A stretch of 26,000 nucleotides of DNA from a virus: the UHGV virus genome UHGV-0185509; one strand, written 5' to 3'. Both the position numbers and the translations under genes were made by a program. Of this stretch, positions 1,483 through 10,176 are shown piece by piece. Position 1 is the stretch's first letter, and each line of letters starts with the position of its first letter. The notes beneath the pieces were generated by a model. The model did no database searches, was not told the origin of the DNA, and saw nothing but the letters and a program-made list of their open reading frames with translations.

Positions 1483-1841
1483 ACGAATATCAGTTTGTGC
1501 TTCCATACCCGCCGTCGGTGAACACCTACTGGCGAAGACGGGGAAGCCAATACTACATCAGCGATAAAGGCCAGAAATACCGAAAAGACGTTCAGCAAAT
1601 CATCCGCCAACTCAAGTTAGACATTTTCACCAAATCACGACTCCGCATCAAAGTCATCGCAGACGTTCCAGACTCCCGCCGCCGCGACCTCGATAACATC
1701 CTGAAAGGTTTACTCGATTCCCTTATCCACGCCGGATTTGCGGAAGACGACGAGCAATTCGATGACATTCGCGTAATTCGTGGTGTGAAAGTACCAGGCG
1801 GAAGGCTTGGAATAAAAATCACCGAACTGGAGAACGTATGA
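1479..1841 (+). CDS. rusA: RusA Holliday-junction resolvase
   Basis: 120 aa, typical RusA size; start motif (FVLPYPPSVNTYW) and acidic catalytic region (DLDNILKGLLDSL) as in lambdoid RusA; start overlaps upstream stop. Confidence 0.85.
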   Translation: MNEYQFVLPYPPSVNTYWRRRGSQYYISDKGQKYRKDVQQIIRQLKLDIFTKSRLRIKVIADVPDSRRRDLDNILKGLLDSLIHAGFAEDDEQFDDIRVIRGVKVPGGRLGIKITELENV

Positions 1842-2026
1842 ACGCCACAATTCAAACGATACCAGAGCTTCTTATCCAGACACGAGGCAATCAGACCGAA
1901 GTGGCGAGGATGCTTTCCTGCGCAAGAGGAACAGTGCTCAAGTACAACAGAGACAGCAAAGGCGAGCGTCACGTAATAGTTAACGGCGTCCTGATGGTCA
2001 AACAGGGCAAGAGAGGAAGACGATGA
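1838..2026 (+). CDS. ninH: NinH-like protein
   Basis: 62 aa; TIPELLIQTRGNQTEVARMLSCARGTVLKY...VNGVLMV closely parallels lambda NinH as I recall it; start overlaps rusA stop. Confidence 0.8.
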   Translation: MNATIQTIPELLIQTRGNQTEVARMLSCARGTVLKYNRDSKGERHVIVNGVLMVKQGKRGRR

Positions 2027-2541
2027 GCATAAGAGAACTAAACCTCACCAAAGAACAGCATGAGTGGCTGAATTGCTGGCTTGAACTGTGGGGCGCATGG
2101 GTTTATTCAGGTCGTCTGGAAAAGCGCATGAGCAGCGTAATAGCGAAGTTCATGGAGAGCGTAGAGCCGGGAAGAGTTATGACAAGGCCAATGTGCAATG
2201 ATGATGATGGAATGTTGATTTCTCAGGTCGTCGATTCCGTCATGTGCATTGACAAGAAAGCCTTTGGCATCCTCCTCAGCTACTACGCTCATGGTTCATC
2301 TAAGCGAGCAATTGCATCCTACTATCACGCGACTGCAAAGCCACGCAAGATGTGTGGACGTGGTGGCGAGGGATGGAGAAAACCTTCACTGGCAACCTGT
2401 AGAAACGAAATTGACGACATCCTGAAAGCGTCGTTATTTGTTTTGTACCAGCCAATGCAAAATGCTTTCAAAATGCGTAAACGTGTTGAGAAAGTTAAGC
2501 ATGTTGCTGTTAAAAGCCTTGACATGCAATTATCCATTTAG
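2023..2541 (+). CDS. Q: late-gene antiterminator Q (QuuD / phage 82 Q-type family)
   Basis: 172 aa; LELWGAWVYSG...PMCNDDDGMLISQVVDSVMCIDKKAFGILLSYYAHG resembles the DLP12 QuuD-type Q proteins; sits directly upstream of a promoter-terminator pair and the lysis genes. Confidence 0.7.
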   Translation: MSIRELNLTKEQHEWLNCWLELWGAWVYSGRLEKRMSSVIAKFMESVEPGRVMTRPMCNDDDGMLISQVVDSVMCIDKKAFGILLSYYAHGSSKRAIASYYHATAKPRKMCGRGGEGWRKPSLATCRNEIDDILKASLFVLYQPMQNAFKMRKRVEKVKHVAVKSLDMQLSI

Positions 2542-2548
2542 CCATAAT
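2519..2548 (+). promoter_or_regulatory. candidate late promoter PR' (sigma70 -35 TTGACA, 18-bp spacer, -10 CATAAT) overlapping the Q stop codon
   Basis: TTGACA at 2519-2524 and CATAAT at 2543-2548 read directly; position immediately after Q and before a terminator matches the lambdoid PR'/qut arrangement. Confidence 0.45.
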
Positions 2549-2561
2549 TAGAAGGTAAACT

Positions 2562-2600
2562 GCCGTTAGTGACTCTTAAGTTGCAACGGTGGCTTTTTTT
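2562..2600 (+). terminator. intrinsic terminator (tR'-like) downstream of Q
   Basis: GC-containing imperfect hairpin (ctgCCGTT...AACGGtGGC) followed by a run of 7 T at 2594-2600. Confidence 0.6.
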
Positions 2601-2604
2601 ATTT

Positions 2605-2679
2605 GGGTCAGTCGTATAAAGGTCATTACGGAAGGCTGTTAACCTTCTTATCGTGGTTCGAGTCCACGCTGTCCCGCCA
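2605..2679 (+). tRNA. tRNA-Asn (anticodon GUU), phage-encoded
   Basis: Hand-folded cloverleaf: perfect anticodon stem GAAGG/CCTTC with loop CTGTTAA (anticodon GTT), perfect T-arm CGTGG-TTCGAGT-CCACG, 3' CCA; acceptor stem has one T-T mismatch and the D-arm is short, so it is atypical. Confidence 0.55.
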
Positions 2680-2684
2680 AACAT

Positions 2685-2760
2685 GCTGGTTTAGCTCCAA
2701 TGGTAGAGCGGTCGCCTTGTAAGCGAATGGGTAGCGGTTCAAGTCCGTTAACCAGCACCA
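2685..2760 (+). tRNA. tRNA-Thr (anticodon UGU), phage-encoded
   Basis: Perfect 7-bp acceptor stem GCTGGTT/AACCAGC, D-arm GCTC-CAATGGTA-GAGC, anticodon loop CTTGTAA (anticodon TGT), T-arm AGCGG-TTCAAGT-CCGTT (one G-U pair), discriminator A and 3' CCA. Confidence 0.65.
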
Positions 2761-3002
2761 TAACTGAGCCGTAGCCACTGGCTATCCTGGATTCATCAGT
2801 GATAGTTACGCTGCGGCCTTCTACATATGACCTTCGTGAAAGCGGGTGGCATGAGGTTGCGCTAACAACCTCCTGCCGTTTTGCCCGTGCATATCGGTCA
2901 CGAACAAATCTGATTACTAAACACAGTAGCCTGGATTTGTTCTATCAGTAATCGACCTTATTCCTAATTAAATAGAGCAAATCCCCTTATTGGGGGTAAG
3001 AC

Positions 3003-3326
3003 GTGAAGATGCCAGAAAAACATGACCTGTTAGCCGCCATTCTCGCGGCAAAGGAACAAGGCATCGGGGCAATCCTTGCGTTTGCAATGGCGTACCTTCG
3101 CGGCAGATATAATGGCGGTGCGTTTACAAAAACAGTAATCGACGCAACGATGTGCGCCATTATCGCCTGGTTCATTCGTGACCTTCTCGACCTCGCCGGA
3201 CTAAGTAGCAATCTCGCTTATATAACGAGCGTGTTCATCGGCTACATCGGTACTGACTCGATTGGTTCGCTTATCAAACGCTTCGCTGCTAAAAAAGCCG
3301 GAGTAGAAGATGGTGGAAATCAATAA
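3003..3326 (+). CDS. S: class I holin S (lambda-type), dual-start: GTG-AAG-ATG gives antiholin S107 and holin S105
   Basis: 107 aa, near-identical to lambda S as I recall it ([39 protein letters not shown]...); codons 1 and 3 are both starts (GTG at 3003, ATG at 3009). Confidence 0.95.
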
Positions 3327-3786
3327 TCAACGTAAGGCGTTCCTCGATATGCTGGCGTGGTCAGAGGGAACTGATAATGGACGACAGAAAACCAGAAATC
3401 ATGGTTATGACGTCATTGTAGGAGGAGAGCTATTCACTGATTACTCCGATCACCCTCGCAAACTTGTCACGCTAAACCCAAAACTCAAATCAACAGCAGC
3501 CGGGCGCTATCAGCTTCTTTCCCGTTGGTGGGATGCCTACCGCAAGCAGCTTGGCCTGAAAGACTTCTCTCCCAAAAGCCAGGACGCTGTGGCATTGCAG
3601 CAGATTAAGGAGCGTGGCGCTTTACCGATGATTGATCGCGGTGATATTCGTCAGGCTATCGACCGTTGCAGCAATATCTGGGCTTCACTGCCGGGCGCTG
3701 GTTATGGTCAGTTCGAGCATAAGGTTGACAGCCTGATTGCAAAATTCAAAGAAGCTGGCGGAACAGTCAGAGAGATTGAGGTATGA
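3310..3786 (+). CDS. R: endolysin R (lambda-type lytic transglycosylase)
   Basis: 158 aa, near-identical to lambda R as I recall it ([39 protein letters not shown]...). Confidence 0.95.
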
Positions 3787-4220
3787 GCAGAGTAACCGCG
3801 ATTATCTCCGCTCTGGTTATCTGCATCATCGTCTGTCTGTCATGGGCTGTTAATCACTACCGTGATAACGCCATCGCCTACAAAGAACAGCGTGATAAGG
3901 CCGCATCCATAATCGCTGATATGCAGAAGCGTCAACGTGATGTAGCAGAACTTGACGCCAGATACACAAAGGAGCTTGCTGATGCTAACGCGACTATCGA
4001 AAGTCTCCGTGCTGATGTTTCTGCTGGGCGTAAGCGCCTGCAAGTCGCCGCCACCTGTGCAAAGTCAACGACCGGAGCCAGCGGCATGGGCGATGGAGAA
4101 AGCCCAAGACTTACAGCAGATGCTGAACTCAATTATTACCGTCTCCGAAGTGGAATCGACAAGATAACCGCGCAGGTTAACTACTTGCAGGAATACATCA
4201 GGACGCAATGCCTTCGATGA
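3783..4220 (+). CDS. Rz: spanin inner-membrane subunit Rz
   Basis: 145 aa; N-terminal TM segment identical to lambda Rz ([31 protein letters not shown]), coiled-coil C-terminal part diverged; start overlaps R stop. Confidence 0.9.
3982..4167 (+). CDS. Rz1: spanin outer-membrane lipoprotein Rz1, embedded in the +1 frame of Rz
   Basis: 61-aa ORF wholly inside Rz; signal peptide with lipobox ([20 protein letters not shown]) followed by a proline-rich stretch ([13 protein letters not shown]), as in lambda Rz1; start chosen by analogy. Confidence 0.7.
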
Positions 4221-4394
4221 TAGCGATAATTTTACTCATCATCCTTCACATCTGGCTCTGTAGACAGGGTGGTGATCACTTCTGGAGTGAATCCAGATTA
4301 AACATCTCATTGCTGATGCTTGAAGTTGAGCATCTGGCGCGCAGTAAGGGGCTGCGTTGAGATAAGAGCCAGTCATTACAAATACCAGGATTTA

Positions 4395-4420
4395 GCCTCG
4401 CATTTGCGGGGCTTTTTTAT
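4395..4420 (+). terminator. intrinsic terminator downstream of the lysis cassette
   Basis: Hairpin GCCTCGC-attt-GCGGGGC followed by TTTTTT at 4413-4418. Confidence 0.6.
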
Positions 4421-4565
4421 ATCTGCAACAAACGCGCTTCACACGCGCGACTTCTGAACACAGAACCTTTCAGGATGACCCTTGAGGATGCCGGTTTGGT
4501 GATCGGTGCCTTTCTGTGGGCCGGAATCCTGTGTGACAAGGTTCATCACTAAAAGGTAATCACTG

Positions 4566-5096
4566 ATGAAGTACCCAACAGTTATTGTCAATGGTGTGTC
4601 CGTTCGTGTTGATGAGGATGGACGCTACAACTTAAACGATCTCCATGCAGCAGCAGTTGCAAATGGAGAGGCTACAGAGCAACAGCGCCCAAGCCAGTTT
4701 TTGCGTAGCGCGCAGATAAAACGCTTCATAAAAGCACTGGAGGCCAAAGTGCAAAAAAGCACTTTGGAACAAATTCAACCACTTAAAATAATCAAAGGTG
4801 GTGCAGAACCAGGTGTGTGGGGTGTTGAACTTCTGGCAATCAGATATGCAGCATGGATTAAGCCGGAATTTGAAATCGAAGTTTATGAAGTTTTCAAAAC
4901 GGTCGTCCGTCTCGGCGTTGGCGCAATGTCCCGTCTGAATAGAATCGATCACATCATCAATACTGAAACCAAAGCGATAAGCCAGTGCGCAAGCCAAATG
5001 GCTAAGTGGGGCGTTGGTGGGCGAAAAAGATTGCTTCATGTTGCACGTGAGAGAGCGGCAAATGAAGTGCAAATGTATTTGCCCGGAATGGTGTGA
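4566..5096 (+). CDS. KilA-N domain protein (accessory gene between lysis and packaging modules)
   Basis: 176 aa; N-terminal region (VIVNGVSVRVDEDGRYNLNDLHAAA) fits the KilA-N DNA-binding domain pattern; flanked by non-coding DNA on both sides. Confidence 0.6.
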   Translation: MKYPTVIVNGVSVRVDEDGRYNLNDLHAAAVANGEATEQQRPSQFLRSAQIKRFIKALEAKVQKSTLEQIQPLKIIKGGAEPGVWGVELLAIRYAAWIKPEFEIEVYEVFKTVVRLGVGAMSRLNRIDHIINTETKAISQCASQMAKWGVGGRKRLLHVARERAANEVQMYLPGMV

Positions 5097-5282
5097 TTCT
5101 GCTGGTTAATCCAGTTTTGCATTACGGCAGTACCACGAAACAACCCAAGCCAGTAAGTGGGGAAATAACACTGGCAGCCACTGAAAGATGAACCTCCTGC
5201 CTTATGGCAAAAAAGATTCTTTGTGGTGGTGGACTGATGGAAAGACATCCTAATCAAGCAACCACTCCACAGGGTCATAATT

Positions 5283-5663
5283 ATGAACGACCAGCAAATC
5301 GAAAAAGAAATCGTTGAGAAAGGCAAAACGGCACCGCGAATCACCCCGCAGCACATCGAAGACGTGATTAAAAGCGAGCATTACTTTACTGCTTATGATG
5401 GACGAAATGGTGCCATTTCCAGCAACGAATATTGTGGCAGGGAAAAACCAGAAGAAGGCGATCGTGATTTATCACCATTGAAGTTGCTCACTTTCTGCGT
5501 ACTGGTGCTGAAGAATGGCTTCACCGTTACCGGAGAGAGTGCCTGTGCAAGACCGGAAAACTTTGATGCAGAAATTGGTCGGAAGATTGCCCGGCAGAAT
5601 GCTGTAAACAAAATCTGGATGCTCGAAGGTTACTTGCTGAAGCAGAAGCTAAGCGAACAGTAG
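5283..5663 (+). CDS. conserved phage protein of unknown function
   Basis: 126-aa ORF with good coding appearance; sequence looks familiar from lambdoid prophages upstream of terminase but I cannot name the family. Confidence 0.5.
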   Translation: MNDQQIEKEIVEKGKTAPRITPQHIEDVIKSEHYFTAYDGRNGAISSNEYCGREKPEEGDRDLSPLKLLTFCVLVLKNGFTVTGESACARPENFDAEIGRKIARQNAVNKIWMLEGYLLKQKLSEQ

Positions 5664-5766
5664 TTATTACAAAAGCCATTCCCTACAGAGTGGCTTTGAT
5701 AATGGCTTATACCCTACACGGGATAACTTAACTGATATCCCTTTTAACGGATAAACGGAGCCAACA

Positions 5767-6009
5767 ATGGCAGAGATTATTCCCATGACTGAAGAACAGA
5801 AATTCCAGCTAGAGATTTACAAACTGGTCATGAACCAGAACGCAGCCGCAGAGGAAGCATTTCAGTTCATTGGCACTGACGAACTGAAGCTTGAGCTATT
5901 CAAAATTCACTTCCAGTCAGGCGGCGCTAATTCAGATATCACGACCCGTACTATCGAAGCGGTGCGTAAATCGAAGGAAGCGTTAGACCTTTTCACTACC
6001 GGAGCATGA
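5767..6009 (+). CDS. small acidic helical protein of unknown function upstream of terminase
   Basis: 80-aa ORF directly upstream of the terminase small subunit, a position occupied by a small ORF in P22 as far as I recall. Confidence 0.45.
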   Translation: MAEIIPMTEEQKFQLEIYKLVMNQNAAAEEAFQFIGTDELKLELFKIHFQSGGANSDITTRTIEAVRKSKEALDLFTTGA

Positions 6010-6038
6010 TGCTCAACCTGAAATAACAACTAAGTGAG

Positions 6039-6533
6039 ATGAATATGGCAGCACCAAAGGGCAACCGATTTTGGGAGGCCCGCAGTAGTCATGGGCGAAA
6101 TCCTAAATTCGAATCGCCTGAGGCGCTGTGGGCTGCTTGTTGTGAATACTTCGAGTGGGTAGAAGCTAACCCGCTATGGGAGATGAAGGCGTTCTCGTAT
6201 CAGGGTGAAGTGATACAAGAGCCTATCGCCAAGATGCGAGCGATGACCATTACCGGCCTCACTCTGTTCATTGATGTGACGCTTGAAACATGGCGCACAT
6301 ATCGCCTGCGAGAAGATTTATCTGAAGTCGTTACGCGAGCAGAACAGGTCATCTACGACCAGAAATTCTCTGGCGCAGCCGCTGACCTTCTCAACGCTAA
6401 CATCATCGCCCGTGATTTGGGCCTCAAAGAGCAGTCGCAAGTTGAAGACGTGACACCTGATAAGGGAGATCGCGATAAGCGGCGCTCTCGTATCAAGGAG
6501 CTATTCAACCGTGGAACTGGACGCGATTCTTGA
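6039..6533 (+). CDS. gp3: terminase small subunit (P22 gp3-type)
   Basis: 164 aa (P22 gp3 is about 162 aa); sits immediately upstream of and overlapping the large terminase. Confidence 0.75.
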
Positions 6534-8010
6534 TAACTTGAGCGACGAAGAGCAAATAGAATTGCTCGAGCTACTCGAAGAAGAAGAGAACTACCGGAAC
6601 ACACACCTGCTATATGAATTTACGCCATACAGCAAACAGCGTGAGTTCATCGACGCCGGGCATGACTATCCAGAGCGATGTTTTATGGCTGGTAACCAGC
6701 TTGGTAAGTCATTTACTGGTGCTGCTGAAGTCGCGTTTCACCTTACCGGGCGTTATCCGGGCACAAAAGGCTATCCTGCTGATGGTAAATATGGCGGGGA
6801 GTGGAAAGGTAAGCGTTTCTATGAGCCTGTTGTCTTCTGGATTGGTGGCGAGACAAACGAGACTGTAACCAAAACGACTCAACGCATCCTGTGCGGTCGT
6901 ATCGAAGAGAATGATGAGCCTGGTTACGGTTCCATACCGAAAGAGGACATCATTAGCTGGAAGAAGTCTCCTTTCTTTCCGAACCTTGTTGATCATCTTC
7001 TGGTTAAGCATCACACGGCTGATGGCGTTGAAGATGGCATTTCAATCTGCTACTTCAAACCATACTCGCAAGGCCGTGCTCGCTGGCAGGGTGACACAAT
7101 CCACGGCGTGTGGTTTGACGAAGAACCACCATATAGCATTTATGGCGAAGGTCTTACCCGTACCAACAAATACGGGCAATTCTCAATTCTGACGTTTACC
7201 CCGCTGATGGGGATGTCTGACGTTGTTACCAAGTTCCTGAAGAATCCCAGCAAGTCGCAGAAAGTGGTCAACATGACCATCTATGACGCTGAGCACTACA
7301 CCGACGAGCAGAAAGAGCAAATCATTGCATCCTATCCCGAGCATGAGAGAGAGGCGCGTGCTCGCGGTATTCCTACGATGGGTAGCGGACGAATCTTCCA
7401 GATACCGGAAGAGACGATTAAGTGTCATCCGTTCGAGTGTCCTGATCACTTCTACGTAATTGGCGGGATGGATTTCGGATGGGATCACCCACAGGCGCAG
7501 GTTCAGCTTTGGTGGGATAAGGATGCAGACACAATCTACGTTTCACGCGTGTGGAAGGCGAAAGAAAAAACAGCCGTTCAGGCGTGGGGAGCTGTTAAAT
7601 CATGGGCGCATAAAGTGCCAACAGCATGGCCTCATGACGGAAACCAGCACGAGAAGGGCGGCGGTGAGCAGCTCAAAGGGCAGTATGCCGACGCTGGTTT
7701 TATGATGTTGCAGGAGCATGCGACATGGCCTGATGGCGGTAACGCTGTGGAGCCTGGCATCACTGAATTGCGCGACATGATGCTCGATGGTCGCTTCAAA
7801 GTATTCAACACCTGTGAGCCATTCTTTGAGGAGTTCCGCCTCTATCACCGTGATGAAAACGGGAAGATCGTCAAGCTTAACGACGACGTGCTATCAGCCG
7901 TTCGCTATGCATACATGATGCGCCGCTTCGCCAAAATGATGCGCGACATCAAAAAACCAAAAGAGAAAAAGATACCAGCCCCAATCAGGCCCATCGCACG
8001 GAGAACTTAA
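6511..8010 (+). CDS. gp2: terminase large subunit (P22 gp2-type)
   Basis: 499 aa, the length of P22 gp2; GTG start at 6511 overlaps the small-subunit 3' end; nuclease-like C-terminal region. Confidence 0.9.
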
Positions 8011-10176
8011 ATGGCCGACGAAAACAGACTCAATTCCATTCTGTGTAAGTTTGACGCAGACTGGATGGCGAGCGATGAAGCCAGAACCGAGGCGACAAAT
8101 GACCTGTATTTTAGCCGAGTGTCGCAATGGGATGACTGGCTATCAAACTACACCACCCTGCAGTATCGCGGACAATTCGATGTTGTCCGCCCGGTTGTCA
8201 GGAAGTTGGTCGCAGAGATGCGCCGGAACCCTATCGACGTTCTCTTCCGACCAAAAGACGGTGCTAATCCTGATGCTGCCGATGTGCTGATGGGGATGTA
8301 TCGTACTGATATGCGCCATAACACGGCAAAAATTGCCGTTAACGTTGGCGTTCGTGAGCAGATAGAGTCCGGCGTTGGTGCATGGCGTCTGGTCACGCAG
8401 TACGAAGACAACGATCCAACAAGCAACAATCAGGTAATCCGACGCCTGCCAATCCATGAGGCCTGCTCACACGTCATATGGGACGCAAACAGCAAGCAGA
8501 TGGATAAGAGCGACGCTAAGCACTGCACGGTGATTAACGCTTTGTCACGCAATGGCTGGAAAGAGTTCGCAGAGGATTACGGTATTGATCCTGACACGCT
8601 GCCATCTTTCCAGAATCCGAACGATACATGGCTGTTTCCGTGGGTATCGAATGATGTCGTCTACGTCGCTGAGTATTACGAGGTCGAAGAGAAGAAAGAG
8701 AAGGTCTTCATCTACCGCGACCCGCTGACAGGTGAGCCGGTCAGCTATTACCAGCAGGATATCAAAGACGTCATCGACGACCTGGCTAATCGTGGATTCA
8801 TTAAGGTAGCAGAGCGCAAGGTGAAGCGTCGGCGTGTGTATAAGTCGATCATCACCTGCACGCAGATACTGAAAGACCGCGAGAAGATAGCTGGAGAGCA
8901 TATCCCAATCGTTCCTGTGTACGGCGAATGGTCATTCGCTGGTGACAAGGAGTGCTACGAAGGAGTGGTAAGGCTGACGAAAGACGGTCAACGCCTTCGT
9001 AACATGATCATGTCGTTCAACGCCGATATCGTTGCCCGTTCACCGAAGAAGAAACCGACCTTCTTCCCTGAGCAAATCGAAGGCTACGAATACATGTACG
9101 GTGGAAATGATGACTATCCGTACTATCTGCAGAACAGGACCGATGAAAACGGTAACGACCTGCCGATTGGTCCAATCTCCTACATGGAAAACCCTGAAGT
9201 GCCGCAAGCCAACGCTTACATGCTTGAGGCTGCCACCAACGCAGTGAAAGAGGTGGCTAGTCTTGGCGTGGATGCGCAGGCGGCAAACTCTCAGGTCGCT
9301 TTCGATACCGTCAATCAACTGAACATGCGGGCAGATCTTGAGACATACGTGTTTCAGGATAACCTGGCTACCGCAATGCGACGTGATGGCGAGATTTATG
9401 CCTCAATGGTCAACGATATTTATGACGTTCCTCGTCATGTAACGCTGACACTTGAAGATGGAAGCGAGAAAGACGTTCAACTCTATGCGCAAGTTGTCGA
9501 TTATCAGTCCGGCAATGTGGTCACACTCAACGACATTCGCGGTCGCTATGAGTGCTATACGGACGTTGGGCCATCCTTCCAGAGCATGAAGGAACAGAAT
9601 CGCGCAGAGATTCAGGAGTTGCTAACCAAGGTTCCGCAAGGTACTCCAGAGTTCCAGATGCTGATGCTGCAATACTTCACGTTGCTTGACGGTAAAGGCG
9701 TCGAGATGATGCGAGAGTACGCGAACAAGCAACTGGTGATGATGGGGCTGAAGAAACCAGAAACACCTGAAGAGATGGAGATGGTGCAGCAGGCACAACA
9801 ACAGCCGCAGCAGCCATCAGCAGAGCAAATTCAGGCGCAGGGTATCCTTCTGCAAGGTCAGGCTGAATTGCTCAAGGCAGAGAACCAACAGGCGCAGATT
9901 CAGGTTGAAGCCGCCAAGGTTGAAGCCCAAAACCAACTCAACGCCGCGAAGATTGCAGAAATCTTCAACAATATGGACCTCGACAAGCAGGCAGAACTGC
10001 GTGAGTACCTCAAGCTCGTAGGTCAATTCCAGCAACAGCGCAGCAAAGATGCTCGTGCTAACGCTGAGCTGCTTCTTAAAGATGCAGACCAGACTCATTC
10101 ACAACGCATGGATTTCGCGAATCTTATGCGTCAAGTTCAAATCCCCTCCGGCGGAGTAGCCGAGACACCTCAATAA
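8011..10176 (+). CDS. gp1: portal protein (P22 gp1-type)
   Basis: 721 aa (P22 portal 725 aa); Gln/Ala-rich helical C-terminus ([18 protein letters not shown]...) typical of the P22 portal barrel; ATG immediately follows the terminase stop. Confidence 0.9.

Follow-up and report, generated by a model that had tools for sequence, protein, structure and literature searches.

A phage 21-type late-gene control region at the 3' end of the Q gene of a P22-like temperate phage

A promoter (PR') overlapping the 3' end of the Q gene and an intrinsic terminator (tR') behind it are present in the 26-kb stretch of viral DNA analyzed here, which we call the window throughout. We consider it very likely that they form the cassette controlling the late genes of a P22-like temperate phage of the Sf6/L/HK620 type with a Q protein of the phage 21 family. 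An earlier reading of the letters alone, the first-pass annotation, had proposed a PR'/tR' pair overlapping the end of Q, and this pair is confirmed. The element is already known: it is the phage 21-type array of PR', Q-binding element (QBE), sigma-dependent pause element (SDPE) and tR', in the specificity variant of Sf6-type and L-type phages. The value of recognizing it is mainly one of annotation, as it marks the start of the late operon and the family of Q that is in control.

Results

Q belongs to the phage 21 family

2023-2541, plus strand: Q gene, late-operon antiterminator of 172 amino acids, Q21 family (open reading frame with a PF06530 match).

Pfam divides Q proteins into three families, represented by lambda Q (PF03589), Q82 (PF06323) and Q21 (PF06530) (PMC9388147). 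The window Q matches PF06530 (E = 1.4e-25), and its residues 1-162 align with phage 21 Q as solved by crystallography and cryo-EM (PDB entries 6JNX and 6P18; E = 2e-89, ~84-85% identity). The first-pass annotation had thought the layout consistent with a phage 82/QuuD-type Q rather than a lambda-type one. The exclusion of lambda stands, with no match to PF03589 in the Pfam scan. Phage 82 is ruled out as well, because Q82 belongs to PF06323 and the same scan of the window Q gave no match to that family at E <= 0.01. QuuD, a protein of 127 amino acids identical to phage 434 Q, does fall in PF06530, but it is a distant relative from another subfamily, with only 29% BLASTP identity to the window Q over 82 residues. 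Judged by this homology, the window Q is a Q21-family protein and phage 21 is the proper reference system.

A near-consensus promoter spans the Q stop codon

2519-2524, plus strand: PR' -35 hexamer TTGACA, positions -36 to -31, aligned with the annotated -35 of phage 21 PR'.
2543-2548, plus strand: PR' -10 hexamer CATAAT, positions -12 to -7, as far from the start as AACACT, the -10 of phage 21.
2555, plus strand: predicted transcription start, G (+1), 7 nt past the -10 and aligned with A39541, the start annotated in phage 21.

The phage 21 record (OL657228) carries literature-referenced annotations of the -35, the two QBE subsites (QBEu and QBEd), the -10 AACACT, the start, the SDPE, the terminator and genes for tRNA-Asn and tRNA-Thr. 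The near-consensus sigma-70 promoter that the first-pass annotation had seen across the Q stop codon is present as described: TTGACA and CATAAT are separated by 18 nt, and the stop TAG (2539-2541) falls within this spacer. Within the last 23 bases of the Q gene lie the -35 hexamer and the greater part of the QBE-like repeats described below.

With 11 of 12 consensus positions matched, TTGACA-18-CATAAT is the top-scoring sigma-70 promoter in the 26-kb window, which has no second match of at least 11/12. By itself a match this good could arise by chance in a stretch of 26 kb. In dinucleotide-preserving shuffles of the window, 0.37 matches of 11/12 were expected per shuffled window, and 30% of the shuffles had at least one. 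The weight of the promoter call therefore comes from its position and homology rather than from the match score alone. The Sf6 and HK75 records annotate a promoter at coordinates homologous to those of PR' in the window. For the 97%-identical BTP1 prophage, no experimental start site of PR' was found in Owen et al. (2017), and Canals et al. (2019) list no small RNA for the PR' leader; the one they do list in this region is antisense to the tRNAs.

The promoter is followed by a short hairpin leader

2556-2561, plus strand: sigma-dependent pause element (SDPE) TAAACT, +2 to +7, aligned with the phage 21 SDPE TAAGCT; predicted to cause pausing.
2560-2600, plus strand: intrinsic terminator tR', a bulged hairpin (2560-2592), an unpaired C (2593) and a U-tract (2594-2600).

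Folding of the RNA from 2555 to 2601 gave a bulged 14-bp hairpin of -14.9 kcal/mol (z = -3.25; 1 of 200 shuffles was as good), compared with z = -5.1 for the phage 21 leader hairpin. Folding thus bears out the earlier description of a hairpin and a run of seven T residues behind the promoter, at 2560-2592 and 2594-2600. A simple scan for consensus terminators did not report the tR' hairpin, because its stem is bulged and interrupted and folding is required to find it. From 2560 onward the window tR' is identical to that of phage 21, and a terminator is annotated at this place in the phage 21, Sf6 and HK75 records.

Starting at G2555, the terminated leader would be ~46 nt long (45-47 nt), in agreement with the ~45 nt estimated at first. 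The corresponding leader of lambda, 6S RNA, has ~194 nt. The phage 21 terminator, 21tR', has served in vitro as a Q21-sensitive terminator (PMC6606751).

The architecture is conserved across a range of distances

A scan of IMG/VR yielded 80 loci encoding a Q 97-99% identical to that of the window, 78 of which reach past the Q stop codon. As all of these are close relatives, they inform conservation and not covariation. TTGACA, both repeats and CATAAT are kept in every one of the 78. The upstream repeat reads AATTATCC in about half of them and AATTAGCC in the others, and the downstream repeat is nearly invariant. Seventy of the 78 have the phage 21-type leader and hairpin. The remaining eight carry another leader module, with A as the start, TATGCT and a later hairpin, joined exactly at the boundary between the -10 and the start.

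HK629 and seven IMG/VR relatives share this alternative leader, joined at the same boundary. At the end of its Q gene (720-749 of its record), the -35, repeats and -10 are as in the window. The record places a "putative late promoter pR'" at 902-907, ~160 bp further downstream; this annotation is probably misplaced.

The architecture is also kept, with other sequences, in six distant phages of the Q21 family: SE1, Hafnia yong1, Edwardsiella GF-2, Providencia PSTCR7lys, HK639 and a Klebsiella phage. In each of them the -35 lies at or overlaps the Q stop codon, two 8-bp repeats abut the -10, and TAnnnT at +2 to +7 is followed by a hairpin and a U-tract. The SE1 terminator differs by four changes in the 3' arm. 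Two convert G-U to G-C pairs, a third replaces the A of a U-A pair with G, and the last replaces the A of another U-A pair with U, which is mismatched when read in the window's register. The SE1 leader nevertheless still folds as one long hairpin, and a more stable one (-26 kcal/mol).

These comparisons bear on whether the promoter and terminator matches could be chance features of the 3' end of Q and the adjoining intergenic region, with no regulatory role. The shuffled windows show that a promoter match of this quality may arise by chance, and the hairpin escaped the simple terminator scan, but the array is positionally homologous to an experimentally characterized element. The -35, repeats and -10 persist in all 78 relatives even where the downstream module has been swapped, the architecture recurs with other sequences in distant Q21-family phages, and the hairpin is more stable than expected both here and in phage 21. 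Chance is effectively refuted by this homology, and we give it almost no credence as an explanation of the array.

A private base lies in the pause element

The first-pass annotation had also singled out TAAACT as a candidate pause element. The candidate holds up, as it aligns with the phage 21 SDPE, and its coordinates shift by one base, from 2557-2562 to 2556-2561. Its fourth base, A2559 (+5), is G in phage 21, Sf6, HK75, phage L and all 70 relatives with the phage 21-type leader. TAAACT occurs in none of the 78 close relatives from IMG/VR that reach past the Q stop codon, nor at this element in the GTDB representative genomes. The variant was found in just one IMG/VR contig, 3300045988_036588, which is 100% identical to positions 1790-9168 of the window and is probably the same phage.

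The change from G to A raises the match of the SDPE to TATAAT from 3/6 to 4/6, and it costs the stem its closing G(+5)-C(+39) pair beside the U-tract. When folded, the leader has -20.2 kcal/mol in phage 21 and -14.9 kcal/mol in the window, where a C before the U-tract is left unpaired. By inference, G2559A should strengthen the pause and somewhat weaken the terminator, and termination may be less efficient than in phage 21. The base could equally be an assembly error. If real, it offers a natural test case for the trade-off between SDPE strength and closure of the terminator stem, which is a small question.

A short RNA made constitutively in lysogens might have a second role as a trans-acting small regulatory RNA, like StxS, the PR'-tR' product of Shiga-toxin phages. 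StxS demonstrates that PR'-tR' leaders can become Hfq-binding small RNAs, and phage 21 has been listed among the phages that make such short RNAs (PMC7547250). StxS shares with the leader predicted here its short length, its constitutive transcription from PR' and its end at tR' in lysogens (PMC7547250). The Rho-independent terminator and U-tail of the window leader are the module that Hfq usually binds, and the leader sequence is identical in phage 21 and most relatives. However, StxS is a 74-nt RNA, cut from a longer leader, that binds Hfq through a module with a defined seed, and the ~46-nt window leader is almost fully paired; its single-stranded parts, ~5 nt at the 5' end and a 4-nt loop, leave almost no seed. 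Recent mosaic exchange and functions in cis, as SDPE and terminator, account for the identity of the leader. No Rfam family matches it: the search of 2300-3100 returned only the two tRNAs. We consider an additional role in trans very unlikely. Similarly unlikely, in our estimation, is a broader speculation in which the leader may be an Hfq-dependent trans-acting small RNA and G2559A, by strengthening the pause and weakening the base of the terminator, might re-tune the switch and alter the leakiness of late gene and tRNA expression.

Repeats between -35 and -10 resemble the phage 21 QBE

2528-2535, plus strand: upstream QBE-like subsite AATTATCC, -27 to -20, in the register of phage 21 QBEu, ATTGAGCA.
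2536-2543, plus strand: downstream QBE-like subsite ATTTAGCC, -19 to -12, in the register of phage 21 QBEd, AATGAGCA.

The QBE of phage 21 consists of two 8-bp direct repeats from -27 to -12, and C:G pairs at -21 and -13 are required for antitermination (PMC6606751; 10.1101/651190). Both window repeats likewise have C at these positions (2534 and 2542). Compared with phage 21, 4 of the 8 bases of the upstream subsite and 3 of the 8 bases of the downstream subsite are mismatched. The downstream subsite includes the Q stop codon and shares the first base of the -10. From the architecture compared here, Q is predicted to bind these repeats.

Among the Q21 residues listed as base contacts by Shi et al., R113, A124, T125 and R127 are retained in the window Q, and H95 and R128 are replaced by R95 and N128. 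We considered the variant QBE and the changes to R95 and N128 as a new point and dropped it, as it had been made in the phage L genome paper, where AATTATCC/AtTTAgCC was described as the likely QBE with the late start nearby and contact residues unlike those of Q21 led to the expectation of another specificity (PMC8022706). In keeping with that expectation, we predict that the window Q acting with AATTATCCATTTAGCC and Q21 acting with ATTGAGCAAATGAGCA have orthogonal specificities. The residue at position 95 may be linked to the end of the repeat. GF-2, which has R95 like the window Q, has repeats ending in CC (TTGAGCC), as do those of the window, and Q21-family phages in which this residue is H, Y, I or L have repeats ending in CA. 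This correlation is only suggestive.

Two tRNA genes and the lysis cassette follow tR'

2605-2679, plus strand: tRNA-Asn (GTT), predicted first gene of the antiterminated late transcript (ARAGORN; Rfam, 55.3 bits); arranged as in phage 21 and Sf6.
2685-2760, plus strand: tRNA-Thr (TGT) (ARAGORN and Rfam); the same gene is present in phage 21 and Sf6.
3003-4220, plus strand: lysis cassette of holin S107/S105, endolysin R, and Rz with embedded Rz1 (open reading frames, holin match to PF05106, Sf6 annotation).

The tRNA genes begin 4 nt past the U-tract of tR', and since they lie directly behind the terminator their expression should depend on Q-mediated readthrough. In the same place, phage L has genes for Asn and Leu tRNAs and HK75 has none. 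The lysis genes would be the first protein-coding late genes under the control of PR' and Q. They are followed by open reading frames that we take to encode P22-type terminase subunits, and the late genes lie on the same strand as PR'. Upstream of Q, the neighbors YbcO, RusA and NinH form a typical lambdoid nin region.

The arrangement can also be read differently. The hairpin and its seven T residues might serve mainly to end the early-right transcript that includes Q, with the promoter acting independently of Q to supply the tRNAs and the late promoter located further downstream, as the HK629 record has it. A terminator directly behind the Q stop codon would also halt unmodified early transcripts, the tRNAs start immediately past the T-run, and the phage L paper left undecided whether its tRNAs are cut from late mRNA or made from their own promoter (PMC8022706). 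A terminator placed between promoter and tRNAs, however, would leave this promoter of no service to them without readthrough. The region is collinear with PR'-QBE-SDPE-tR' of phage 21, for which Q21-dependent readthrough of 21tR' has been seen in vitro (PMC6606751). HK629 itself has the -35, repeats and -10 of the window, its downstream pR' is probably the weaker call, and the window contains no second promoter match of comparable quality. We regard this alternative as highly improbable and retain the assignment of the pair as the Q-controlled late promoter and its terminator.

Several further features were observed around the cassette. A strong terminator-like hairpin, AGCCTCGC-ATTT-GCGGGGCT followed by five T residues, lies at 4394-4413, after Rz/Rz1 and inside the presumed late operon; between it and the terminase genes is an open reading frame at 4566-5096. 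Terminators of this kind within the operon were recorded without explanation in the phage L paper (PMC8022706). On the minus strand inside Q, TTGCGTGGCTTTGC (TTGC-N6-TTGC) at 2335-2348 has the same offset from the Q start as the annotated CII-binding site of the antisense promoter paQ in the phage 21 record. The case for a CII site is one of position only, because the motif occurs at chance level in the whole window (7 found, 7.05 expected). An antisense small RNA of 320 nt, STnc6010, has been reported from the BTP1 prophage of Salmonella D23580, which is 97% identical (Canals et al. 2019, S2 Table). It spans from the tRNA-holin spacer back over tRNA-Thr and into tRNA-Asn (Canals et al. 2019), and by offset it maps to ~2642-2961 on the minus strand of the window, where we found no clear promoter for it.

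Discussion

Proposed mechanism

What the window itself demonstrates is a set of sequence elements with their register, conservation and homology to phage 21; the start site, pausing, Q binding and readthrough are assigned by homology. Q21 is known to act through a direct-repeat QBE, a sigma-dependent pause and a ring placed in the RNA exit channel, with readthrough of 21tR' in vitro (10.1101/651190; PMC6606751). By analogy, sigma-70 RNA polymerase would initiate constitutively at PR', at about G2555, and sigma region 2 would rebind the -10-like TAAACT at +2 to +7, holding the polymerase in a pause within about the first 11-20 nt. Without Q, the hairpin (+6 to +38) would form and transcription would terminate in the U-tract at ~+45 to +47, releasing the ~46-nt leader. 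When Q is present, two protomers would occupy the two 8-bp direct repeats from -27 to -12, between the -35 and -10, and the upstream protomer would insert its ring into the paused polymerase at the RNA exit channel. The nascent RNA would then be threaded through the ring, blocking tR' and later hairpins, and readthrough would extend over both tRNA genes and on through the genes for lysis and morphogenesis.

Transcription enters the 5' arm of the hairpin at +6 and completes the 3' arm only at ~+25 to +38, so Q would have to load within about the first twenty nucleotides. The first-pass annotation had argued that loading must occur very close to the start site, and the timing of the hairpin arms agrees; this would be exactly the mode of phage 21.

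Comparison with phage 21, Sf6-like phages and lambda

Over the 611 bases around the element, identity is 98% to Shigella phage Sf6, to Escherichia phages HF4s and vB_EcoP-720R6, and to many P22-like phages of Salmonella. At the homologous positions, the Sf6 record (AF547987) notes a late promoter "nearly identical to phage 21 late promoter", a qut site, a "late mRNA leader terminator; t R'", tRNA-Asn and tRNA-Thr, and the HK75 record (HM173637) has pR' and Tr' at the matching place. Sf6, HK75 and phage L have the same element with single-base differences: the upstream subsite of Sf6 is AATTAGCC, and all three phages read TAAGCT at the SDPE, against TAAACT in the window.

The late regulatory region of phage 21 was reportedly described by Guo, Kainz and Roberts in 1991. 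The window shares with it the order and spacing of the elements. The -10 occupies -12 to -7 and the repeats -27 to -12; the SDPE lies at +2 to +7, the hairpin runs from ~+3/+6 to +38/+41, the U-tract spans +40 to +46, and tRNA-Asn and tRNA-Thr come next. Between 2556 and 2770, only two bases differ, 2559 and 2710. The repeats are AATTATCC/ATTTAGCC in the window and ATTGAGCA/AATGAGCA in phage 21, the -10 is CATAAT rather than AACACT, and the spacer is 18 nt rather than 17. The window Q is 10 residues longer than phage 21 Q, which places the promoter within the gene, whereas in phage 21 it lies past the gene end. The SDPE is TAAACT instead of TAAGCT, and the window lacks the G-C pair at the base of the stem. 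The lysis cassette is of the lambda type, in contrast to the pinholin and SAR endolysin of phage 21. Identity to phage 21 changes along the region as follows.

2023-2292: N-terminal half of Q, 93-100% identity.
2293-2562: C-terminal DNA-binding half of Q, promoter and QBE, 59-81% identity.
2563-2802: most of the hairpin, U-tract and tRNAs, 93-100% identity.
Beyond 2802: lysis cassette, unrelated.

Judged by these identities, the mosaic reflects the exchange of a specificity module, one junction of which lies close to the transcription start. It illustrates the known point that phages of the Q21 family swap the DNA-binding half of Q together with the QBE, and that the block of SDPE, tR' and tRNAs stays nearly constant.

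[quoted passage not shown] In contrast, its Q belongs to an unrelated family (PF03589), has a different fold and is loaded with the assistance of NusA (PMC9388147). Compactness such as that of the window element is usual for the phage 21 system.
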